Program-made: the position numbers and the translations under genes | The notes under the pieces: generated by a model | The model's input: the letters and a program-made list of their open reading frames with translations, nothing else | Told to the model about the DNA's origin: nothing | The model's database searches: none | UHGV virus genome: UHGV-0240563 | Source: a virus | Length of the DNA: 41,753 bases | Direction: 5' to 3' (one strand) | In this document: one piece after another, positions 5,338-26,193 of the stretch | How the letters are laid out: each line of letters opens with the position of its first letter | Position numbering within the stretch: the stretch's first letter is position 1

Positions 5338-5676
5338 ATGATGGATGAATTAACAAAAGCAGAGCTAGCCCGTATCCGTGACGAGGATCAGCGCCAGAAC
5401 CGGCGCATTGAGCTGCTGGAGGATATGAGTAAGGTGATCCAGGATCTGGTGCTGTCCATCCATGGCCTTGCAAAAGACATGGAGCAGATGCTTCAGGAAC
5501 AGAAGGAGCAGGGGAAACGTCTGGATAACCAGAGTAAGCGTCTGGATGCCTTGGAGAAAGAGCCGGGCAACACTTATAAGGATATCAAAAAAACAGCAGT
5601 CACAGCGATAGTAAGCGCGCTTGCCGGATCACTGGCAACCGGGCTTATTTTAATTTTGTCGCAGACTATCCATTGA
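5338..5676 (+). CDS. XhlA-like lysis-associated membrane protein
   Basis: 112 aa with an N-terminal coiled coil (ELLEDMSKVIQDL…KRLDALEKE) and a single C-terminal TM helix, the PBSX XhlA architecture. It directly precedes a holin-like gene. Confidence 0.5.
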   Translation: MMDELTKAELARIRDEDQRQNRRIELLEDMSKVIQDLVLSIHGLAKDMEQMLQEQKEQGKRLDNQSKRLDALEKEPGNTYKDIKKTAVTAIVSALAGSLATGLILILSQTIH

Positions 5677-5692
5677 GAGGAGGTGAGGAACT

Positions 5693-5923
5693 ATGCTTAA
5701 GAACTGTGTATTTAGGGCTGATGTGGATACCCGCCAGTGGATCCATGCGGCAGGCAGGAGAGCGGTCAAGACCATGGCGCAGACATTTGTCGCCACCATC
5801 GGCTCGGCAGCGGTCATGGGTGAGGTCAACTGGCCTATGGTAGCCAGCGCATCCGGGCTGGCAGGTATCCTGTCAGTGGCAACATCCGTTGCAGGCCTTC
5901 CGGAACTGCCAGCCAAGACCTGA
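5693..5923 (+). CDS. Holin (two TM helices, phiLC3/class II-like)
   Basis: 76 aa: short charged N-terminus, two hydrophobic helices, charged C-terminus. GGAGGTGAGG RBS. Confidence 0.5.
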   Translation: MLKNCVFRADVDTRQWIHAAGRRAVKTMAQTFVATIGSAAVMGEVNWPMVASASGLAGILSVATSVAGLPELPAKT

Positions 5924-6012
5924 GAGGAGGTGATCCAACATCTCCCGTCCGGCAGGGTCAGAGCCGGAGCAACTATTACATATTTTCAACAATGAAAGAG
6001 AGGACAAAGATT

Positions 6013-6180
6013 ATGGCAAACGCAACAGGAAAGAATCAGGACAAGAGAACAGCAGAGCAGAGAAAGAACGACGCAGCACAGAAGGCAAGACCCAAGGGTG
6101 CACAGGATACCACTTTTGTAACCACCGGCCCTGCAACCGGCAAGGAGGACGAGAGAGCGGTAGGCACGGAAGATAAGTAA
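6013..6180 (+). CDS. Small basic hydrophilic protein (55 aa)
   Basis: ATG preceded by AGAGAGGA. Lys/Arg/Gln-rich, low complexity. Confidence 0.3.
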   Translation: MANATGKNQDKRTAEQRKNDAAQKARPKGAQDTTFVTTGPATGKEDERAVGTEDK

Positions 6181-6206
6181 GCTGTGCGACGTCGCAACAC
6201 AGGCAG

Positions 6207-6236
6207 GCCCCGGGATTTCCTGGGGCCGTTTTTGGT
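6207..6236 (+). terminator. Rho-independent terminator
   Basis: GGCCCCGGgatttcCTGGGGCC stem followed by GTTTTTGG. Confidence 0.4.
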
Positions 6237-6246
6237 TGGAGGGAAT

Positions 6247-8595
6247 ATGATTACAGCAGTATTTACAGATAACGATGATTACGCCCATGCCTACGGCCTA
6301 TGGCAGTGGGATTACGGCCAGCAGCTCAGGATTGAGGGATTACATCTTCCGACGGCGGTAGAAATCCACTTTGCGCTACAGGAGACCGGCGGTGAGGCCA
6401 TAACCCGTGTGGGTACCACTAAGGACGGCGTAACAACCGTCACAATCCCGGACAGCATGCTGGAGGGCAACAGTACAGTATGGACGGCAGATAAGGCATA
6501 TAACATCTATGCGTGGGTATACCTGTCGGATAAGTCATCCGGCGAGACAATCAAGCGGATTACCATGCAGGTTAAATCACGCCCCAAGCCAGAAGCCTTT
6601 GAGGCACCGGGAGATGGGGAGATTTTTCACGAGGCGATTGAAGCTGTTAATGATGCCGCCAAACGTGCGGAGGAGGCCGGAGATAAGGCTATAGCTGCTG
6701 CGGATGAGGCCGAAAAAGCAGCCACCCAGACAGCGGAGCATCTGCAAGCTACAGAGGGTCTTGCAGAACAGGTAGAGACCAATGCCGACACCGTGGCGCA
6801 GGATAAACAGACTGTAGCAGGGATGCTCTCCCAGACACAGCAGGTGGCCTCAGAAGCGGTGTTATCGGCACAGGCGGCTAAGTTATCAGAGACAGCCGCA
6901 GTACAGGCACAGACGGGCGCTGAGGCGGCTGAGGATGGGGCAAGACAGTACGCTGAGGAGACAAGGGCAGACCGTCAGGCAGTGACCGAAGATAAACAGG
7001 CAGTTAGCCAGATGAGGGAAAACGTGGCGGCAGACCGTCAGGCGGTAGAGCAGACCGCTTTGCAGTTTGGACAGACCTCTCAGGATGCGCTTACAGCCAT
7101 AGGGCAGGCTCAGAGCACAGCTGTGGGAGCTGTTAAGGCCGAGGGCAATAAACAGACCACAGCGGTACAGGAGGCAGGCACACAGGCGGTCAGTGAGGTT
7201 ACTGAGGCCAAGACTACAGCAGTGGAGGCAGTCACCGCGGAGGGCGATAAGCAGACTAAAAGGGTTGAGGATGCGGCTGCCGGGATTGTGGCAGACAGAG
7301 AGCAGATCAACCAGAATAAGACTGATATAGCCGGTCTGGTGGAAGGGATGACAGATCTGGCACCGGCAATCCATAGCACGGCTTCTGGCTCCGTCATTAC
7401 CGCCAATGATGCCGCAGAAGGCCGTCCGTTCCGGGGGCTGAGGGTGTTTGGGCGGACGGAGCAGGTACAGACTACAGGGGCGCAGTTGATAAATACTCAA
7501 GGCGCAGGAAATAGTAGGGGCGTCGATTGGGTTTTTGACAAGGGAGTCGTTACATTTTCTGGCGTTACAGTGGATACTTCAACCAATAGAGTGAATTGTG
7601 CAGTTAATGTGAAGGATGTGATGGAAATTGGGAAAACATACTTCGCGAAAAGTTTCACTGTGGGGATTGCAAGCGATGTTGCTGTAGAAAAACCATCTGG
7701 GGTAATCTACACTAGAGAATATACGCCCGATGGAACCGAAACAGGTATTTGTATCAGAGTATTAGTTGACAAATCTAATGATGCTGGGATAGAAATTGAC
7801 TTAACTGCTTATGTCGCTATTACCGAAAACGAAAGACTGTCGTCATGGGAGCCCTACACCGGCGGCAAACCATCCCCCAGTCCAGAGTATCCGCAGGAGA
7901 TAGTGAGTGCTGGTGAGAGCGGCACAATCAACGTCTCTATTTCCGACAGCGGAAGTCAGAGCCAATCCCTCACCCTCGCCACTCCTAACGGTCTCCCCGG
8001 TGTGCCAGTCAGCAAGGACGGCAACTACACAGATTCCAACGGTCAGCAGTGGGTTTGTGACGAGATTGACTTGGAGAGGGGTAAGTATGTGCAGAGGGTT
8101 GCAATTGAAAAAAATAATGGTGGTTGGGAATTGAAACCTTCATCAGATACACCAGGAAGGTTTTTTCAGCATAATAAACTCACTAATATTTTTTCAATCG
8201 CATTAAAAAAGTCATTATGTAACATTGCGAGTTTTACCAGTTGGGGGGCACCTGTGAATGATAAGTATGCATTTGCATTAAATGGTCATGGCATTTATTT
8301 TTCGCCCCCGAAAGGTGCGGAAATAACAGCAGAAGAACTCAATGCAAAGCTTAATTCACTCTCATTTCCTGTGGTGTTTGTAGGCGAGTTAGCCACCCCC
8401 ATCGAGCGGGATCTCACACCAGAAGAGATTGCCACCTACAAGGCCCTGCGGACATATGGCCCGACTACTGTGATTACAAATGATGCAGGAGCCGGGATGG
8501 AAGTAACGTATGTAGCAGATACCAAGGCGTACATCGACAAGAAATTTAAGGAATTAAATCAAGCTATCGTGAACACTCAAATTGCATTGTTATAG
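6247..8595 (+). CDS. BppU-like baseplate/tail fibre protein with a central Ala/Gln-rich coiled-coil stalk
   Basis: GGAGGG RBS. N-terminus (MITAVFTDNDDY…) resembles the BppU_N fold. About 250 aa of A/E/Q/T-rich heptad repeats follow, then a mosaic AT-rich C-terminal region. Confidence 0.45.
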   Translation: MITAVFTDNDDYAHAYGLWQWDYGQQLRIEGLHLPTAVEIHFALQETGGEAITRVGTTKDGVTTVTIPDSMLEGNSTVWTADKAYNIYAWVYLSDKSSGETIKRITMQVKSRPKPEAFEAPGDGEIFHEAIEAVNDAAKRAEEAGDKAIAAADEAEKAATQTAEHLQATEGLAEQVETNADTVAQDKQTVAGMLSQTQQVASEAVLSAQAAKLSETAAVQAQTGAEAAEDGARQYAEETRADRQAVTEDKQAVSQMRENVAADRQAVEQTALQFGQTSQDALTAIGQAQSTAVGAVKAEGNKQTTAVQEAGTQAVSEVTEAKTTAVEAVTAEGDKQTKRVEDAAAGIVADREQINQNKTDIAGLVEGMTDLAPAIHSTASGSVITANDAAEGRPFRGLRVFGRTEQVQTTGAQLINTQGAGNSRGVDWVFDKGVVTFSGVTVDTSTNRVNCAVNVKDVMEIGKTYFAKSFTVGIASDVAVEKPSGVIYTREYTPDGTETGICIRVLVDKSNDAGIEIDLTAYVAITENERLSSWEPYTGGKPSPSPEYPQEIVSAGESGTINVSISDSGSQSQSLTLATPNGLPGVPVSKDGNYTDSNGQQWVCDEIDLERGKYVQRVAIEKNNGGWELKPSSDTPGRFFQHNKLTNIFSIALKKSLCNIASFTSWGAPVNDKYAFALNGHGIYFSPPKGAEITAEELNAKLNSLSFPVVFVGELATPIERDLTPEEIATYKALRTYGPTTVITNDAGAGMEVTYVADTKAYIDKKFKELNQAIVNTQIALL

Positions 8596-8605
8596 GAGGT
8601 ACATA

Positions 8606-9103
8606 ATGTACGATATTGTAAAAAATGTTATTATATCAGGTGATTTTAGATTATCTGATATGCAGACTAAAATTGATACTCTCTGGGTACAGGGAGATTT
8701 GACTGAAGATGAAAGAAATGAGTTAATCGCTATCATGAAACAGTATGTTAAACCAGAATCAGAAGCTCCAGAACAGATAGAATTGTACAAGCAGCTACTT
8801 GCAAAATATGAATCTCTGGATGAGCGTGTGACCAAGTTGGAAAATGGCGGTGTGACACCGGAACCACCTACAGGCGTAGAAATCCCTGTCTGGGAGCCTT
8901 GGGACGGCATCAGTAATCAGTACCAATATGGAGCTGTAGTTACAGTCGATCAGAAATATTACATTAGTGCACATCAGGGACAGAATACCTGGATGCCGGG
9001 TAGCATGGGAACGGAAGGACTATGGAAGGAGATCAGTAAAGAAGATGCGGAGGCTGTAATATCCGGCACGAAAACACCGGATCAGGTGGTTAAGGGAGAA
9101 TAA
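8606..9103 (+). CDS. XkdX-like N-terminus fused to a CBM5/12-like carbohydrate-binding C-terminus
   Basis: TAGGAGGT RBS. C-terminus 'WEPWDG…YQYGAVVTVDQKYYISAHQGQNTWMPG' matches the Trp/Tyr pattern of chitin-binding-type modules. Confidence 0.4.
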   Translation: MYDIVKNVIISGDFRLSDMQTKIDTLWVQGDLTEDERNELIAIMKQYVKPESEAPEQIELYKQLLAKYESLDERVTKLENGGVTPEPPTGVEIPVWEPWDGISNQYQYGAVVTVDQKYYISAHQGQNTWMPGSMGTEGLWKEISKEDAEAVISGTKTPDQVVKGE

Positions 9104-9106
9104 GGT

Positions 9107-9910
9107 ATGGAGATAAGACGAGAGATTAAGCAGATAAACTGTTACGCAGGTCAAAACCGTCCTGAGTGGATTGTAATCCATGAGACAGACAATTATAAAA
9201 AAGGTGCCGGCGCACTTAAACACGCTCAGGCCCATAAAAACGGCAACCTGTCCACGTCTGTGCATTGGTATGTGGACGATACGGTAGCAGTACAGACGTT
9301 GTATTACAGCGACGGTGCATACGCAGTCGGTAGACAATATGGTACGCCTCTGGTGGCAGGCGTTACCAACACCAACAGCATTAACATCGAGATCTGCGTC
9401 AACCCGGACTCTAATTATGATACCGCCCGTGCTAACTGCGTGGAACTTGTACGCCAGATCATGGCAGAGACAGGTATCAGTGCCGATCATGTAATCCGGC
9501 ACTATGATGCAAAGCGCAAGCACTGCCCCCGTAAGATGCTGGATCAGCCGCAGTTATGGACAGACTTCAAGGCAGCGCTCGTGGAGCCACAGAGAAAATC
9601 CGGCTGGCAGCAGGAGGATGGCGGTTGGCGCTACTACCTCGGCAACGGTCAGCCAGTCCGAAACGATTGGTACTGGTACGAGGACAAGTGGTACTGGTTC
9701 GACGGCTCCGGCATAATGGTGCATGATACATGGTACAAGTATAAAGACCACTGGTACTACCTGGGTGCTGATGGTGCTATGGTAACAGGACAGCAGACGA
9801 TAGACGGTAAGTGGTACATCATGGATACTGAGGGCCGCATGATTGTGGAGCCGGTGACGCTTACACCGGATCAGGATGGGGCGCTGAGATGGCCGGGGCT
9901 GGCGGAATAA
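9107..9910 (+). CDS. Endolysin: N-acetylmuramoyl-L-alanine amidase (Amidase_2/PGRP) with C-terminal CW_binding_1 repeats
   Basis: 'IVIHETDN…SVHWYVDD…ADHVIRHYDAKRKHCP' matches the Amidase_2 zinc-site pattern. C-terminal repeats GWxxEDGGWRYY / DKWYWFDGSG / DHWYYLGADG / GKWYIMDTEG are choline-binding-type cell-wall repeats. Confidence 0.85.
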   Translation: MEIRREIKQINCYAGQNRPEWIVIHETDNYKKGAGALKHAQAHKNGNLSTSVHWYVDDTVAVQTLYYSDGAYAVGRQYGTPLVAGVTNTNSINIEICVNPDSNYDTARANCVELVRQIMAETGISADHVIRHYDAKRKHCPRKMLDQPQLWTDFKAALVEPQRKSGWQQEDGGWRYYLGNGQPVRNDWYWYEDKWYWFDGSGIMVHDTWYKYKDHWYYLGADGAMVTGQQTIDGKWYIMDTEGRMIVEPVTLTPDQDGALRWPGLAE

Positions 9911-9929
9911 AAAGGTAGAAAAAGAAGTA

Positions 9930-9956
9930 GCAGGGACAATATGGATGTGATATAAT
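9930..9956 (+). promoter_or_regulatory. Candidate promoter with extended -10 (TGaTATAAT) for the small peptide gene
   Basis: GGACAA about 17 nt upstream of TGATATAAT at 9947-9955. Confidence 0.3.
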
Positions 9957-10003
9957 GCTGATGTTACCGCCTCCTATACTGGTAAGGAAGGGAGGTGCTT
10001 ACT

Positions 10004-10090
10004 ATGGAATTTATTATATCCTTTATCGTCGCTGTCGCGGCTGGTGTGGTTTGCCACTACATCATCAAATGGTTGGACGGCGATAAATAA
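10004..10090 (+). CDS. 28-aa hydrophobic peptide, candidate Fst/Ldr-like type I toxin
   Basis: GGAGG at 9991-9995 is 8 nt from the ATG. Peptide MEFIISFIVAVAAGVVCHYIIKWLDGDK is one TM helix plus a charged tail. It has its own promoter and a bidirectional terminator. It was not in the ORF track because it is under 60 aa. Confidence 0.4.
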   Translation: MEFIISFIVAVAAGVVCHYIIKWLDGDK

Positions 10091-10140
10091 CCGGTAACCA
10101 GCCTGTGGGGTTAAGCCTTCCCACTCCAAAAATAGGAATA

Positions 10141-10217
10141 GAAAAACCCGAAGGTCTCGCACACCTCCGGGTTTTTTGTTGTCGCTCACTATGGAACAAC
10201 TATATCCTTTATTGCCT
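10141..10217 (-). ncRNA. Candidate antisense sRNA convergent to the small-peptide mRNA
   Basis: Minus-strand promoter TTGCAT (10252-10247), 17 nt spacer, TGcTATAAT (10232-10224). The transcript would end at the shared terminator and contains GTTCCATAGTGAG, complementary to the mRNA start-codon region CUUACUAUGGAAU. Confidence 0.25.
10145..10180. terminator. Bidirectional rho-independent terminator
   Basis: CCCGAAGGtctcgcacaCCTCCGGG hairpin flanked by AAAAA on the left and TTTTTTG on the right. Confidence 0.6.
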
Positions 10218-10324
10218 ACTGGCATTATAGCATATGCAATTCTGAAATGCAATATCCCTGAAAATCTTTTGATTCTATGTTTTTGGCAGTCACCCCTTAT
10301 ATAGGAAGAAATATCATAATATTC

Positions 10325-11470
10325 TTAGCTTTTTACCAATCGCAATATTGGTTTGCGCCGCTGATTGAAATCGTCAAAAAATTCATCTGGCAATCCACAG
10401 ATACATTTTAAATCATCAATAGATAATCCAGATGCATTGATAAATGCAGTTTTAGTAATTATCCTATTATCGATCAAAAGATAGACTGCGTCACGTATCA
10501 TTTCGGGTTCGGCAATTGTTAAAATATCATCTAACGGCTCTTTATGCCAATACTTTTTTGTGGTCATTTGTCGCTTTAAATAATTTATTTGATTTTCCGT
10601 TAGCAATTCAAGTGTCTCACAACGCTTAATAATGGTGGACATAGCACATCCCCATTTTTTTTTAACAGCCTCTAATGAAATTAGAGAGGTGCTTCGTATA
10701 TCTTTTGGGAATGATGTTGCCGGAAGTAAAAATGCTGCTGCAAATCGATCTGCCTGCATATCTGCTAGATCAACGATTTCTTTTTTAACAGAATCATCTT
10801 CTGCGATAGAACTATGCATTATAAGATGTCCTAATTCATGTAAGATGCTAAATCTAGTACGTACAGCACTCTTAGGAATCGAATGGTACAAAATATATGG
10901 TGTCCCATCTTTCCAACAAGAAAAAGCATCTATACCTTTGAAAGCACAGAAACTATTTGTGGCAAATTGTGTTACGATAACACCTTTATTTTCCAATAAT
11001 CCTATTAAATCATTGATCGGATCATCGTCTATATCCCAATCTTTGCGAATAGTTAGTGCTATTTCCTCAATATCTTCAAAGGATAAATCTTCGTAGTTCT
11101 TGTCGATTGTCGGAAGATCCCGTTCAATAAAATCAACATATTTCTCGAGTTGTTTTTTTATTTCGTCAGTCCACTTTATCTGATATTTGCATGCTGTTTT
11201 AACTTTTTTAGCAATATTAGATTTAGAGCGAAAAAATAATGGACTACTACCAGCATTGATTTTTGCTTCTGATTTATAAAAAAACTCTGTAGGAAACCCA
11301 AGACTATATGAAATGGCCTGTAGCATTTCCGGCGAAGGACGCACTATACCTCGTTCATATTTTGAAATAGATTGCCTTGTAACGCCAATGTCACTAGCTA
11401 AATCTTCCATAGATTTAGCACGAGCTTCCCGAGCTTCTGTTATGCGGGAAGATATAATTGTGCTAGTCAT
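10325..11470 (-). CDS. Fused HTH_XRE DNA-binding domain plus ImmA/IrrE (COG2856) zinc metallopeptidase
   Basis: N-terminus 'LASDIGVTRQSISKYERG' is an XRE helix-turn-helix. 'ILHELGHLIMH…ADRFAAAFLLP' is the ImmA/IrrE HExxH plus downstream Glu-Ala motif. Its start overlaps the stop of the upstream gene (ATGA). Confidence 0.75.
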   Translation of the reverse strand: MTSTIISSRITEAREARAKSMEDLASDIGVTRQSISKYERGIVRPSPEMLQAISYSLGFPTEFFYKSEAKINAGSSPLFFRSKSNIAKKVKTACKYQIKWTDEIKKQLEKYVDFIERDLPTIDKNYEDLSFEDIEEIALTIRKDWDIDDDPINDLIGLLENKGVIVTQFATNSFCAFKGIDAFSCWKDGTPYILYHSIPKSAVRTRFSILHELGHLIMHSSIAEDDSVKKEIVDLADMQADRFAAAFLLPATSFPKDIRSTSLISLEAVKKKWGCAMSTIIKRCETLELLTENQINYLKRQMTTKKYWHKEPLDDILTIAEPEMIRDAVYLLIDNRIITKTAFINASGLSIDDLKCICGLPDEFFDDFNQRRKPILRLVKS

Positions 11471-12096
11471 GAAATATTCTCCTCAATTCCATGCGCTAAG
11501 AACTCTTTCTTTAATACAGCTTTTTTTCGTTCAAATACTTTCATGTTTTCATTTTCAGTGGTTAGACTAATTTGAGGAAGGGGTAAACATTCTGCAATAC
11601 CAGTATATCCAGGTTCTGGAAACTGAACAACAGAAAACGTCTGATTGCGTCCTCCAAATGCTAAAATAGCATAATAAGGTTCATTGCTATAAGGAGGTGT
11701 TTCATCAAAGTCAATAACCATCTGTCTCTGTAATGCATGATTATTGTTTGATAGTCTGATCTTGTACTTTGAAGCATAAGGTAATAAATCAGGTGCTGAA
11801 CTACGTGCAACATGAAGGATTACATTTTTATTTCTGAGTTCTGGTATCAGTTGCTTGCATCGAAACTCACGTTGAATAAATTCAAACGGAAATTTCGGGT
11901 CATGGCTCTCAATCTCACATTGCATTTGCACTAGTTTTGTCCGTAACCGTCCTCTTGTGTCAGCAAAATAGGGGTGTCCCAACATTGGGCGTTGCGTTTC
12001 CATAAGCTCACGATAGGTTACATCGCCGACCTGCACGATTGATGCCAGTGTTTTAAGTTCACGAGAAGTAAAAATATCTTTAAACTGAGTAAGCAT
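11467..12096 (-). CDS. Hypothetical 209-aa protein, first gene of the operon with the HTH-ImmA fusion; candidate toxin/effector
   Basis: AGGAGG sits 4 nt before the second in-frame ATG at 12096 (the track ORF starts at 12120). No recognisable motif. AT-rich. Confidence 0.55.
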   Translation of the reverse strand: MLTQFKDIFTSRELKTLASIVQVGDVTYRELMETQRPMLGHPYFADTRGRLRTKLVQMQCEIESHDPKFPFEFIQREFRCKQLIPELRNKNVILHVARSSAPDLLPYASKYKIRLSNNNHALQRQMVIDFDETPPYSNEPYYAILAFGGRNQTFSVVQFPEPGYTGIAECLPLPQISLTTENENMKVFERKKAVLKKEFLAHGIEENIS

Positions 12097-12125
12097 ATGT
12101 CCTCCTATATTTTTAATCATGAGCC

Positions 12126-12154
12126 TATTTTACATTATTTATATATTTTTGTCA
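12126..12154 (-). promoter_or_regulatory. Candidate sigma-70 promoter for the 209-aa / HTH-ImmA operon
   Basis: Minus-strand TTGACA (12154-12149), 17 nt spacer, TAAAAT (12131-12126). Confidence 0.35.
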
Positions 12155-12208
12155 ACCGGAGTAAAATACACTATTAAATCAATATTTACGGAAATAAAGA
12201 AAGAAAAA

Positions 12209-12247
12209 AGCGGCTACCAAATAAAAGGCAGTCGCTTTTTTGGAAAA
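12209..12247. terminator. Terminator downstream of the integrase gene (bidirectional)
   Basis: AAGCGGCTaccaaataaaaggcAGTCGCTT hairpin flanked by an A-run and a T-run. Confidence 0.4.
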
Positions 12248-12435
12248 AATCCGCATATGAGTCGAAACTCAACATAACAAAAAATATAATAAAGCTTAAA
12301 TCCACGATGCATTTGCATCGACAATGTACTTAAAGTATAATACCTATCCTCGCAGACGTCAATGGTAAAATGATACTATATAATAGGAAGAAACCTCATA
12401 AGTTATAACATTCTGGCCCGCCGTATTGTAATAAC

Positions 12436-13914
12436 TTATGATGTGTAGTAAAAGAACGTAAAACTCCGGGTTTCCCGGTCAAATACTATCTTTTCGCAGA
12501 GAGACCGCAGAGCGTTGCCCTTAGTTTCGTTGTCTGCGGTCGGATCGGAAAGTACTTGATACACACAGGACACCTTTGCCATCATTTCAGCCTGATCCGG
12601 TGGAGCCGCCTCTGTTTGCTGGGCCTTTTGCCGGAGCTGATCCAGGGCGTTCTCCAGTTCCTTGCGTTCTGCGTTCAGGCGTAGTTTGTTCTGCTTATAT
12701 TCTTCCAGGGTATCTATTTCATTTTCATATGCCTCCCGGATGCGTCGCTCTTTCACCGTGATGCGTTCGAGGGCTTCTTTTATTGCAATTTCTTCCTCGC
12801 TTATGTCATTTTCGGTTTTTGGGATGTGTTCATATTCAAGGTGGTTATTTCTAAGGGCTTTCTCCAAAGACCGGAGCACGGTACGTTCTGCGATTCGGGC
12901 GGATACACAGCAGGAGCCAGGGTGGAAGCCTTTGGCGTATTTCCAGCACTGGAAGAAGTCCGGGCGCTTCTTCTGATCGTTGGAGCGGTTGAAGCCCAGG
13001 CTGCTACCGCAGACTCCGCAGAACAGCATCCCTGACAGCCAATGAGCGTTGGCGGAAGCTTCCCGGCGTTTTTTAGGGCGGTATTCAGAGGTTATACGCT
13101 TCTGAACATCGTCAAATACAGAGGTGACAGCTGGCCGGGTTTCGTGGGTTCCTTGAAAGGTGATTCCGTTCCATGAGACCTCTCCGGTGTAAAAATGATT
13201 GGTAAGGATTCTGTAGATGGCCCTGCGGTCGAAGAGATTCCCTCTTTGAGTGCGGTACCCTATGGTGTTTACAGATCTGGCAATACCGGTCATATCCCTG
13301 CCGCTGTGGTAGGCCTGAAATATATATTCCACGATGGAATAGGCATCCTCATCAATGAGGAAGGGTTTCCCATCGCCCACAGCCTTATATCCTAAGCATG
13401 GGGCGGTCTGGTAACCTTCACGCAGCGCCTTCTCCGTCATGCCCCTCTTGACCTCCCCGGAGAGGTTGAAGGAGTAGTATTCGTCAAACCACTCTATGAT
13501 GGTTTCAATCAGCCGCCCGAACATACCTTCCATGATGGGCTCTGATATGCTTTTGATCTCAATGCCGCATTTCTTTCGCAGGATGCCTTTGTAAAAGGTA
13601 CTTTCTTCCTGATTCCGGGCGAACCGGGAGAATTTCCAGAGGTACAGACGTTTGAATGGTGCAGGCTTCTGGGATTTGGCAATGGCAATCATGCGCTGGA
13701 ACTCCGGGCGGTTGTCTGCCTTGCGGCCGGAAATACCCTTTTTCTCCTCGAAAATGTATTCCTTGGGGATTACGAAGCCGTCTGCTTTGGCGGCATCCAG
13801 AATCATACGCAGCTGGGCATCCGGGGAGAGTTCTGTCTGGTCGTCGGTACTGACACGGATGTAGGCGGCCCCGATTTCCAAGGGTTGTGCATTGCTGGTG
13901 GATAATTGTGACAT
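12436..13914 (-). CDS. int: Large serine recombinase (phage integrase)
   Basis: N-terminal resolvase catalytic domain ('AAYIRVSTDDQ', 'FSRFARN'), recombinase domain, zinc ribbon (CGVCGSS…CWKY) and C-terminal coiled coil. AAGGAG RBS. Confidence 0.9.
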   Translation of the reverse strand: MSQLSTSNAQPLEIGAAYIRVSTDDQTELSPDAQLRMILDAAKADGFVIPKEYIFEEKKGISGRKADNRPEFQRMIAIAKSQKPAPFKRLYLWKFSRFARNQEESTFYKGILRKKCGIEIKSISEPIMEGMFGRLIETIIEWFDEYYSFNLSGEVKRGMTEKALREGYQTAPCLGYKAVGDGKPFLIDEDAYSIVEYIFQAYHSGRDMTGIARSVNTIGYRTQRGNLFDRRAIYRILTNHFYTGEVSWNGITFQGTHETRPAVTSVFDDVQKRITSEYRPKKRREASANAHWLSGMLFCGVCGSSLGFNRSNDQKKRPDFFQCWKYAKGFHPGSCCVSARIAERTVLRSLEKALRNNHLEYEHIPKTENDISEEEIAIKEALERITVKERRIREAYENEIDTLEEYKQNKLRLNAERKELENALDQLRQKAQQTEAAPPDQAEMMAKVSCVYQVLSDPTADNETKGNALRSLCEKIVFDRETRSFTFFYYTS

Positions 13915-14093
13915 TATATCATCTCCTTGTGGATTATACGATAAATGGGTATAAAAAATACACCCCTTGCCAGGATGTACCAGAAATGATATAATTCAGG
14001 TGTCTAAGCTGATATATCTTTCCGGAGTATCCGGCAAGAGAATCTATGTGAAAGCCGTTCCTGTTGGCGCAGGGGCGGTTTTTATTTTCTAAG

Positions 14094-14856: not shown

Positions 14857-15306
14857 TTATTTCAATCTCAAATCAATTAACTCTTTTTGATAACCTAGAA
14901 CTCGCGCAACTTGCTCGATAGTATATTGTTGAAATTGAAAATATTCTATTAGAATATCATCGGGAATTAGGAAATCAATAGCAAATTTGTTGGCTTCCTG
15001 CTCTTTACGCGAATTAAGAAAGAGAGTTTTATGCTTTATGAAATAGCAGTTTTCACGAGGGTGAAGAATTGCATGACCTAATTCATGCGCCATGACAAAT
15101 AAGCGCTCATTTCCTTCAAGATTTTCATTTATCCAGATACATTTATTACGCTTTAGATACATATAGCATCCTGATCGCGTGCCGATATCACCAATCGCAA
15201 CTTCAATTCCGAGTGCCTCAGCTAAAGTAAAAGGATCGTTTGTCTGATATTTTTTTATGTAATAAGCAACTTTCTTTTTTATTGTGTTATTCAAGGCTGG
15301 ACTCAC
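14857..15306 (-). CDS. immA: ImmA/IrrE-family metallopeptidase (anti-repressor protease of the ImmR/ImmA type)
   Basis: 'FVMAHELGHAILH' HExxH motif. It is directly downstream of and abuts the XRE repressor gene. Confidence 0.8.
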   Translation of the reverse strand: MSPALNNTIKKKVAYYIKKYQTNDPFTLAEALGIEVAIGDIGTRSGCYMYLKRNKCIWINENLEGNERLFVMAHELGHAILHPRENCYFIKHKTLFLNSRKEQEANKFAIDFLIPDDILIEYFQFQQYTIEQVARVLGYQKELIDLRLK

Positions 15307-15762
15307 CTACTTTTTATTTTTGTTGCCATATTTTGCTTTGTTCTTTGCTTTTAATCTGTGCAACATAAGATCCACTTGGCCTAAAAAGAGTTCGATATCA
15401 TCATCAGGTATATCTTCTCCATCATATGCAGCAGGTCCTAAATCTTTATTGAGTAATTTTTCTCTTAGCGAATCAAGATCCTTTTTTATATCTCTTTCAT
15501 CTCGCACTGTTAATTCTGGCATCAATTTGTTGGATTCGTTTTCTCCCATAAGATAACTCACAGAAACATTAAAGTAATTTGCCAATTTTTGGACTTTTTC
15601 CATACTGGGTTTATTTGTATCGACTTTACATAAAGAACCTCTAGCAAAACCGAGAGCTTTTTCAGTTCCTGTAACAGTTACTCCTTTTTCTTTGCACAAC
15701 ATTTTAATTCTATTATACGTAAGCATAGTACACCTCTCAAAAAAGTTGAAAAAATTACGCAA
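15307..15762 (-). CDS. XRE-family HTH repressor (CI/ImmR-like) with C-terminal coiled region
   Basis: 'IKMLCKEKGVTVTGTEKALGFARGSLCKV' helix-turn-helix. Divergent from a cro-like gene. Confidence 0.8.
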   Translation of the reverse strand: MRNFFNFFERCTMLTYNRIKMLCKEKGVTVTGTEKALGFARGSLCKVDTNKPSMEKVQKLANYFNVSVSYLMGENESNKLMPELTVRDERDIKKDLDSLREKLLNKDLGPAAYDGEDIPDDDIELFLGQVDLMLHRLKAKNKAKYGNKNKK

Positions 15763-25172: not shown

Positions 25173-25596
25173 ATTAACACAGAAAGATGGGCAGGGAAAT
25201 TGGAGCCTTAGGGGAGTGCCGTGGGAGCATCTGTATGAAGGGAAGATCATCACAAAGGAGTTATGGAAACGCCTGTATGGAGCACTCTGGAAGCTGATGG
25301 AGTATGAGGATACCGGTCTGACACCGGAAGAAGCAGAGGCGTTGGATAGCTTTGAAAGAAGCCAGGTAGGAAAAATGCTGAAAGAACTGAATGAGGAGCA
25401 GCGCAAGCACCGCTGGATCCCAGTGGAGGAGAGGCTGCCGGAAGAATCTCTTAATAGTGTAATCGGCTGGGACAAATATAGAGAAAGATGCTGTTTTGTG
25501 CAGTATTATGCTGGCTCCTGGCATCTGGGTGATGAGTCGGTGAGGATTATTGCCTGGATGCCGCTGCCGGAGCCGTATCAGGGCAAGGAAGGATAA
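25165..25596 (+). CDS. DUF551-like phage protein
   Basis: AGGAGGG RBS. C-terminal 'WHLGDESVRIIAWMPLPEPY' resembles DUF551. Confidence 0.45.
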   Translation: MNRLTQKDGQGNWSLRGVPWEHLYEGKIITKELWKRLYGALWKLMEYEDTGLTPEEAEALDSFERSQVGKMLKELNEEQRKHRWIPVEERLPEESLNSVIGWDKYRERCCFVQYYAGSWHLGDESVRIIAWMPLPEPYQGKEG

Positions 25597-25691
25597 GTTG
25601 TAGTAAACAGTTGTGGTATTAAACAAGTAGTTGTTGTATCGAGTTAAAACGAATTAAAGTCGAGTTAAATTAAGGTTTTGGAGATAGAAGT

Positions 25692-25769
25692 ATGAAGCCA
25701 GAAGATTTAGAACTTTTTTTGATTATGTTGGGAATGCTCTTTTTGGCAATTATGATTATGCCTATGTAA
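25692..25769 (+). CDS. 25-aa hydrophobic micro-peptide (MKPEDLELFLIMLGMLFLAIMIMPM)
   Basis: GGAGA RBS. Sits in an AT-rich island. Speculative. Confidence 0.2.
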   Translation: MKPEDLELFLIMLGMLFLAIMIMPM

Positions 25770-25791
25770 AATTAAGATTTAGAGGAGAACT

Positions 25792-26193
25792 ATGGAAGTT
25801 AAAGAATTAAAAGTGGATTTAAAAGAAGGTCATGCAGTTGCATTTGATTTTGATGGTGTAATTCATAGATATTCAAAGGGATGGCAGGATGGAAGTATTT
25901 ATGATGAGCCTAACTATAGAGTTTTAGATTTAATACTTTTATTACAGTTACAAGGTATACCGTGCGTTATTATCTCTACCAGAGATCCAGAGCAAATTAA
26001 GGGCTGGTGGGATCAGCAAGGCTTTACGCTTAAAGCAAAGGTGCTGGGGTTTAATACATTTTTTTACAATGACTGTTCCTGTGTCGGTATAACAAATCGT
26101 AAGATCCCGGCCCAGGTGTATGTTGATGATAGGGCATACAAATACAAAGGGCAAACACCTCAGCAATTTTTTATGGATTTTGCGTTAAACTGA
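25792..26193 (+). CDS. HAD-superfamily phosphatase-like protein (nucleotidase-like)
   Basis: 'AVAFDFDGVIHRY' is HAD motif I (DxDG). AGGAGAA RBS. Strongly AT-rich relative to its neighbours. Confidence 0.55.
   Translation: MEVKELKVDLKEGHAVAFDFDGVIHRYSKGWQDGSIYDEPNYRVLDLILLLQLQGIPCVIISTRDPEQIKGWWDQQGFTLKAKVLGFNTFFYNDCSCVGITNRKIPAQVYVDDRAYKYKGQTPQQFFMDFALN

Follow-up and report, generated by a model that had tools for sequence, protein, structure and literature searches.

Between the lysis genes and the integrase gene of the virus genome UHGV-0240563 lies an AT-rich segment with two overlapping genes on the minus strand, and the question raised by this locus is what these genes encode and what role they play on a phage. 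The window, i.e., the whole stretch of DNA that was analysed, is 41,753 nucleotides (nt) long; the segment occupies ~2.06 kb of it (10320-12382). Its upstream gene (11467-12096, minus strand) codes for a soluble α/β protein of 209 residues, and its downstream gene (10325-11470, minus strand) for a protein of 381 residues consisting of an XRE helix-turn-helix (HTH) domain, a linker, an M78 zinc peptidase, and a C-terminal region. A preliminary description of the locus had taken the two for a toxin-antitoxin (TA) or defence pair resembling RosmerTA, with an upstream partner that could be a new toxin. Only the first of these proposals is borne out. The pair is very probably a type II TA cassette of the RosmerTA family; a temperate phage of gut Clostridia carries it as a moron (accessory cargo) at the outermost end of the prophage. 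The two genes are referred to below as rmrT (putative toxin) and rmrA (antitoxin/regulator).

Domain structure of RmrA

RosmerTA systems consist of a zinc-peptidase antitoxin together with a toxin whose function is unknown and act in phage defence; a ΔrmrA version was not transformable (Millman et al. 2022, bioRxiv 10.1101/2022.05.11.491447). Comparison with the RosmerTA reference profiles of PADLOC (PDLC03933-03956) identifies the 381-residue protein as a full-length RmrA. The best match, to PDLC03947 (E = 7e-105), aligns residues 3-366 with profile positions 9-369 of 383, and 14 RmrA profiles are matched in all. The protein is also assigned to phrog_2439, and it matches the NCBIfam model NF052239 (spr1629 family repressor/antitoxin) over its full length (E = 5e-58, 196.9 bits).

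The fusion of an XRE HTH domain with a zinc peptidase, previously read from the letters, was confirmed by Pfam. Residues 12-61 (11288-11437, minus strand) form the DNA-binding domain HTH_3 (PF01381, E = 7.4e-13), and residues 182-283 (10622-10927, minus strand) the core of Peptidase_M78 (PF06114, E = 9.4e-13). Thus, RmrA combines the domain composition of a RosmerTA antitoxin with a match to its profiles. The HELGH motif (10826-10840, minus strand) and the downstream segment D..QAD.FAAAFLLP, in which the ADRFAAAFLLP noted earlier is present, both lie inside the M78 core. Both elements are invariant across 14 homologues, and no segment of RmrA is more conserved than the M78 core; the peptidase is therefore probably active.

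RmrT and its superfamily

The upstream protein had been described as having no recognisable motif. This holds for Pfam and NCBIfam, where it matches nothing, including NF052238 (spr1630 family), but not for PADLOC, where residues 86-173 match the RmrT profile PDLC03933 with E = 1.2e-8. RmrT has 154 close homologues of ~209 residues from gut Clostridia, and a profile search of 1.84 billion representatives returned 143 clusters, nearly all of them single-domain proteins of 205-230 residues. PDLC03933 is matched by all 28 aligned members (the window protein and 27 relatives) and by 42 of the 50 sampled superfamily members (best 5e-30), subsets of which match five other RmrT profiles. A Pfam search with the same 50 members yielded scattered noise only, and a sequence search of the PDB with the RmrT family profile yielded nothing.

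Because the matches to PDLC03933 extend over the relatives and most of the sampled superfamily, the partner of RmrA belongs to the catalogued RmrT superfamily; judged by these profiles, it is a divergent member of that group and not a new type of toxin. The novelty expected in the preliminary description was thus overstated, RosmerTA being an established system (bioRxiv 10.1101/2022.05.11.491447) with a validated phage-encoded example (PMC10440598). As in RosmerTA, the gene adjacent to rmrA and co-oriented with it matches an RmrT profile. The protein is predicted to be soluble, with no transmembrane segment and an isoelectric point of 8.4.

Linkage of the two genes

The preliminary description had proposed that the genomic neighbourhoods of homologues of the 209-residue protein be searched for Xre-ImmA genes, and the association is complete. 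In all 24 loci fetched via the 209-residue protein a homologue of RmrA is found directly downstream, and the identities of the two proteins co-vary over these loci (45-100% for RmrT, 66-100% for RmrA). Six further loci fetched via RmrA have the same pairing, bringing the linked loci to 30 of 30. The 4-nt overlap of the two genes is kept in loci L001-L012.

Decay variants indicate which of the two genes would be the toxin. In locus L024 (3759-3938), RmrT is reduced to an in-frame fusion of 59 residues, in which the N-terminal helix is joined to the C-terminal ERKKAVLRKEFL helix and the whole β-core is gone, while an intact RmrA of 385 residues and the 4-nt overlap are retained. A different variant occurs in L004 (5627-6782), where RmrA is split into an 84-residue HTH open reading frame (ORF) and a 313-residue M78 ORF, with RmrT intact. 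Similar losses are found in RipAB (Spr1630/Spr1629) of Streptococcus pneumoniae, a Rosmer pair (Maziero et al. 2025, PLoS Genet, PMC12795458) whose ripB gene tolerates deletion only in the absence of ripA (PMC12795458). RipA sequences were recovered from metagenome contigs via a primer sequence given in the supplement of the RipA paper; the same primer pattern had no match in viral contigs. Among 15 metagenome ripAB loci carrying the pneumococcal ripA start (L111-L125), ripA is truncated to 27-71 residues in five. In four of these five ripB codes for 281-383 residues, and in the fifth (L119) it was not found. Natural loss of the toxin seems to be common at ripAB loci. Were the upstream gene the toxin, its loss with retention of the HTH-peptidase gene, as observed in L024 and at the ripAB loci, would be the expected pattern, and this argues for rmrT as the putative toxin of the pair.

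Expression signals of the cassette

Both minus-strand ORFs, their ATGA overlap and the AGGAGG in front of the first of them are present as previously described. The stop codon of rmrT and the start codon of rmrA share 4 nt (11467-11470, minus strand), and the ribosome-binding site of rmrA, read from the sequence as GAGGAG (11479-11484, minus strand), is located within the 3′ end of rmrT. The ribosome-binding site of rmrT, AGGAGG (12101-12106, minus strand), lies 4 nt 5′ of the ATG at 12096. An alternative start at 12120 would extend RmrT to 217 residues, with its ATG just 7 nt past the -10 box. The start at 12096 is favoured, the homologues being 205-210 residues long and beginning at the aligned Met.

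The promoter block (12120-12157, minus strand) comprises GGTTGACA with the -35 box, a 17-nt spacer, TAAAAT as the -10 box, and AGGCTCA. The promoter TTGACA-17-TAAAAT noted earlier is present and matches the consensus at 11 of 12 positions, although its coordinates had been given one base off and are 12155-12127. The scan found no TG at the position required for an extended -10 element. Promoter-like sites number 12 in the region and 9.7 +/- 3.4 in shuffled sequences, a count within chance, so the case for the promoter rests on its conservation. Its bases are identical in 13 unrelated genomic contexts, with homology from GGTTGACA through TAAAAT, AGGCTCA, and GGAGG, and the sequence further upstream is unrelated among them. 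Since the upstream homology starts exactly at GGTTGACA in all 13, the module brings its own promoter. The heptamer AGGCTCA (12120-12126, minus strand), right behind the -10 box, is also kept in these contexts and may represent the region of the transcription start or an operator half-site.

The cassette is bounded by terminators on both sides. A bidirectional intrinsic terminator (10142-10176), with a 14-bp stem between A and U tracts, is the shared end of the cassette on the minus strand (dG -20.9 kcal/mol, z -3.4) and of the lysin gene on the plus strand (dG -18.3). A second terminator hairpin upstream (12204-12241, minus strand; dG -20.2 kcal/mol, z -4.6) shields the cassette from read-through from the integrase gene. 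With its own conserved promoter of the sigma-70 type and flanking terminators the cassette is the separate transcription unit that it had been taken for. Rfam returned only sub-threshold noise for it.

Three points weigh against the assignment to RosmerTA. The match of RmrT to PDLC03933 is partial, covering 83 of 212 profile positions (~40%); RmrA lies below the equivalog cut-off of NF052239 (197 vs 335 bits) and is a homologue but not an equivalog; and an inverted-repeat search of the window and the 13 promoters detected no conserved palindromic operator.

Mobility of the cassette

An empty site for the cassette is provided by a sister phage, L043, which has the same lysin (93% amino acid identity) and, ~430 nt away from it, a serine integrase that is 100% identical. 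The alignment with L043 covers 9106-10319 of the window and resumes at 12383-14083, skipping the cassette. The 2.06-kb insert, which includes the upstream terminator, is bounded by a 19-bp imperfect direct repeat, with ATAGGAAGAAATATCATAA at 10301-10319 and ATAGGAAGAAACCTCATAA at 12383-12401 identical at 17 of 19 positions, and a single copy, ATAGGAGAAAACCTCATAA, is present at the empty site of L043. Thus, the cassette is accessory cargo. The AT-rich composition that had been reported was confirmed: its GC content is 0.352, compared to 0.477 for the whole window, in which just 2.5% of equal-sized windows are equally AT-rich, and the GC content at third codon positions is 0.25-0.28, compared to 0.50-0.70 in sampled phage genes.

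The cassette is present in one of the 11 close relatives with enough sequence past the lysin, and in the others the post-lysin site carries different low-GC ORFs. Both the empty site of the sister phage and this other cargo agree with the earlier view that the locus is a moron lying between genes for lysis and integrase. Three of the relatives (L031, L032, and L036) share alternative cargo with ORFs of 138, 95, and 279-324 residues and a GC content of ~0.40; the largest of these ORFs in L032 extends to the end of the locus and distantly resembles a serine recombinase.

A block corresponding to 9106-12366 recurs with 96.9% identity in L030, a phage with a tyrosine integrase. It is also found in the integrated prophages L025-L029, whose outermost cargo is the pair, adjoining the host genes nusB/xseAB/dxs. 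A megablast search with the cassette found no match among 50,697 phage records. The contexts of the pair include a relaxase-bearing conjugative-type element, prophages with tyrosine or serine integrases, the pair lying beside tyrosine integrases or CHAP lysins, and the window phage. The cassette moves as a block among prophages and the relaxase-bearing conjugative-type element, and, as a compact, translationally coupled bicistronic operon with an ATGA overlap on mobile DNA, it has the layout of a type II TA module.

These contexts also bear on the biological role of the pair, which could chiefly be addiction, the same TA pair stabilizing its mobile element through post-segregational killing or by retaining the prophage or conjugative element, and not defence. 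Presence on a relaxase-bearing element besides prophages, location at the prophage edge, where deletions start, and the non-defence role of chromosomal RipAB in competence signalling would all fit such a function. Nevertheless, the RosmerTA systems that were tested, one of them phage-encoded, protected against phages, and the position after the lysin gene is typical of slots with variable cargo. Addiction as the main role appears unlikely, albeit the least so among the alternatives considered here. The two roles are compatible and not mutually exclusive.

Predicted fold of RmrT and the clamp hypothesis

Structure prediction, which had been suggested for the 209-residue protein, gave a confident AlphaFold2 (AF2) model (pLDDT 86.3, pTM 0.84). 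Its fold matches are weak and lean towards PD-(D/E)xK proteins, none of them being significant. In the model, two N-terminal helices are followed by three strands, helix 110-119, further strands, and a C-terminal helix, an order of elements that fits the α-β-β-β-α-β core of restriction endonucleases. On this basis RmrT could be a nuclease-type effector with a divergent PD-(D/E)xK fold, degrading DNA or RNA after its release and not binding the clamp. A canonical PD-(D/E)xK active site was considered and rejected, there being no invariant acidic residue over the 50 superfamily members and no conserved D...(D/E)xK pattern; the third strand reads L-x-I-A-K, with no acid at i-2. A nuclease activity of RmrT is rather improbable, and slightly more so than a main role in addiction.

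The best-conserved site of the superfamily is a segment of the form Q-φ-x-φ-[D/N]-φ, with the Gln present in 123 of 132 aligned sequences. In the window protein this segment is Q125-M-V-I-D-F130 (11707-11724, minus strand), and it resembles the published motifs by which proteins bind the β sliding clamp, Q-φ-x-L-F and Q-φ-x-L-x-L (PMC12309361; bioRxiv 10.64898/2026.05.27.728225). The patterns Q-φ-x-[LIMF]-F or Q-φ-x-[LIMF]-x-[LFIM] are fitted by 69 of the 132 sequences, compared to just 0.5% of the remaining Gln residues of these proteins; some members of the superfamily have exact QLSLF, QLSFF, or QLSIF.

A clamp target has been described for RipA, the toxicity of which is suppressed by mutations in the hydrophobic pocket of the clamp DnaN and which binds DnaN in the yeast two-hybrid assay (PMC12795458). 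The homology of the two antitoxins, RmrA and RipB, extends over the full length, with 26% identity and E = 1e-31. For the toxins the signals are weaker. NF052238 ("spr1630 family toxin") is matched by three of the 50 superfamily members (3e-4 to 1.4e-2) and is the sole family matched by more than one of them, and the superfamily hidden Markov model scores 12 bits on RipA (E = 5e-6 for one comparison). The weak co-linear similarity between the superfamily and RipA takes in an S-x-Y-x7-N spacing as well as the conserved Q-φ-x-L-φ segment, and Q-[M/L]-E-L-[V/I]-S-D is invariant in the RipA family.

Several observations weigh against the clamp as the target and against common ancestry with RipA. 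The fourth position of QMVIDF is Ile, whereas the canonical residue is Leu. The segment is predicted to be a short β-strand (in a block of 10 residues with pLDDT 80), and a φ-x-φ-x-φ pattern fits an ordinary amphipathic strand equally well. The weak fold matches are enriched in PD-(D/E)xK nucleases. Alignment of the superfamily with RipA by hhalign, over 123 co-linear columns, has P = 0.0027 and a probability of just 11%; the close RmrT family and the RipA family give no signal with either hmmsearch or hhalign; and the AF2 model of RipA (pLDDT 47.7) is too poor for a comparison of folds. In addition, a validated phage RmrT, RmrT-D5, acts on the membrane, so Rosmer toxins do not have one shared mechanism.

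Since these signals are weak, appear at the level of the superfamily, and do not appear with the close family, homology of RmrT and RipA is plausible but unproven. The likeliest toxic mechanism, albeit with odds below even, is that RmrT would block replication by docking QMVIDF into the peptide-binding cleft of the β sliding clamp. With the same reserve, the idea may be widened to the main soluble RmrT superfamily as a whole (PDLC03933/34/38/40, the phage protein and, distantly, RipA), the members of which would be degenerate proteins of the restriction-endonuclease fold, no longer catalytic, that kill via the DnaN cleft.

Proposed mode of action

In the RosmerTA cassette proposed here, RmrT would be toxic and RmrA would neutralise it by direct binding, while the HTH domain of RmrA would repress the cassette promoter. 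A trigger, for which a superinfecting phage, loss of the element, and failure of proteostasis are candidates, would inactivate RmrA, possibly aided by its own peptidase. Freed RmrT would then arrest the cell, with the result that the infection is aborted, the element is stabilised, or both. The arrest might consist of a replication block via insertion of a Q-φ-x-φ-x-φ segment (QMVIDF) into the cleft of the β clamp, as RipA appears to act.

The cassette adds one more RosmerTA system, unusually well delimited by its own promoter, insulating terminators, and a matching empty site. As a minimal unit of 2.06 kb it is convenient for cloning and for studying the movement of defence cargo among phages of gut Clostridia. 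It also offers a testable mechanistic lead for a class of toxins listed as having an "unknown function". RipA, the only relative with a known target, acts on the peptide-binding pocket of the clamp. If clamp binding is true, it would provide a mechanism for a large share of RosmerTA toxins and explain the suppressor mutations of RipA, no motif being described for them in the RipA paper. A block of the replication clamp would then be the way in which many RosmerTA defence systems, prophage-borne ones included, abort infection.

Other modules of the phage genome

Joining the ends of the window creates an open frame of 1,068 codons that corresponds to a tape-measure-like gene; the window, which has no terminal overlap, is thus a complete, circularly permuted phage genome of 41.75 kb. 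Upstream of its serine integrase gene (12436-13914) lies a second HTH/M78 pair on the minus strand (14857-15762), split into a 151-residue HTH protein (capH-like, E = 2e-7) and a 149-residue stand-alone Peptidase_M78 (E = 6.6e-23). After this pair comes a protein of 249 residues, which has an Mrr_cat nuclease domain (E = 9.8e-29) and, judged by eye, a hydrophobic N terminus. The segment 14094-15762, AT-rich with a GC content of 0.334, looks like a lysogeny switch of the ImmR/ImmA type with a nuclease moron, and the phage thus has two M78 peptidases. No similarity beyond the catalytic motif was detected between RmrA and this ImmR/ImmA-like pair, and the idea of cross-talk between them was dropped. 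The preliminary comparison of the cassette with CapH/CapP turned out to be the looser fit and better suits the split pair.

It is highly improbable that the cassette itself is an ImmR/ImmA- or CapH/CapP-type switch for lysogeny or another effector, with the 209-residue protein as a sensor or co-regulator and not a toxin: it shares its M78 and HTH domains with ImmA/ImmR, IrrE/DdrO, and CapP/CapH and matches the PADLOC profiles capP (E = 7e-15) and capH (E = 6.5e-9), but it fits RmrA better than capP by 90 orders of magnitude, the split pair, unrelated to RmrA beyond the catalytic motif, already occupies the position of a lysogeny module, L043 dispenses with the cassette while having the same integrase, and the cassette travels among unrelated elements with only its partner gene.

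Several features of the window phage and its relatives were observed in passing. What looks like a second hotspot for cargo lies between the ImmA-like gene and the integrase, where the window has Mrr_cat, L030 (5876-7147) a 423-residue SNIPE/T5orf172 nuclease, and L043 (~5560-6860) two genes without annotation, of 215 and 201 residues; the content of this slot varies. In L025, and equally in L026-L029, direct repeats of 45 bp (7639-7683 and 8711-8755) enclose ~1 kb between host asp23 and the prophage end (7639-8755). This segment carries a ToxN_toxin gene (7777-8355, minus strand) with a tandem repeat of 40 nt x 2.1 directly upstream (8403-8490), and is probably a type III ToxIN-like system at the attachment site. 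A tRNA-Asn (GTT) gene is located at 27371-27445 in the early/replication region of the window phage. A further sharp AT-rich dip at 25501-26000 (GC content 0.358), overlapping an ORF of 133 residues (25792-26193), may be one more moron.

Comparison with known systems

Comparison of the cassette with the described RosmerTA systems reveals the same two-gene operon, with an HTH-M78 fusion of the RmrA type and a partner matching RmrT. RmrA is a hub antitoxin found with varied toxins, and the toxin-first order of the cassette is the commoner one, occurring in 58% (PMC10440598). The cassette differs in that its RmrT represents a divergent branch, as seen in the E value of 1.2e-8, and in its host range, which comprises gut Clostridia and their phages. 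The RosmerTA of the Gordonia phage Kita, which defends against specific coliphages (Ernits et al. 2023, PMC10440598), is likewise phage-encoded and relies on an RmrA protease antitoxin. The toxin of the Kita system, RmrT-D5, contains transmembrane segments and causes depolarisation of the membrane (PMC10440598), whereas the soluble RmrT of the window has no such segment and an architecture unrelated to that of RmrT-D5.

RipAB resembles the cassette in the position of the toxin gene, which comes first, in the full-length homology of the antitoxins, and in the occurrence, in both, of variants that have lost the toxin and kept the antitoxin. In turn, RipA is longer (243 residues) and limited to Streptococcus (6 clusters), and ripA and ripB are 14 nt apart, whereas rmrT and rmrA overlap. 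RipAB is chromosomal, tied to ClpX and competence (PMC12795458), and not known as phage cargo. If the clamp hypothesis holds, the hydrophobic pocket of DnaN targeted by RmrT would be the same as that for SocAB of Caulobacter crescentus, a clamp-targeting system cited in PMC12795458. This likeness is an analogy only, as SocAB has no sequence or structural relation to the cassette and its antitoxin works by a different logic, SocA being a ClpXP adaptor.

The pairs ImmR/ImmA, IrrE/DdrO, and CapH/CapP have an XRE HTH domain and an M78/COG2856 peptidase in common with RmrA and offer a plausible model for its action, in which a signal-responsive peptidase lifts the control mediated by the HTH domain. 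In these systems the HTH domain and the peptidase are encoded as separate proteins with other genes under their control, ImmR/ImmA and CapH/CapP having a repressor and a protease gene that control excision or an operon, whereas in the window they are fused into one protein and accompanied by a single putative toxin gene.

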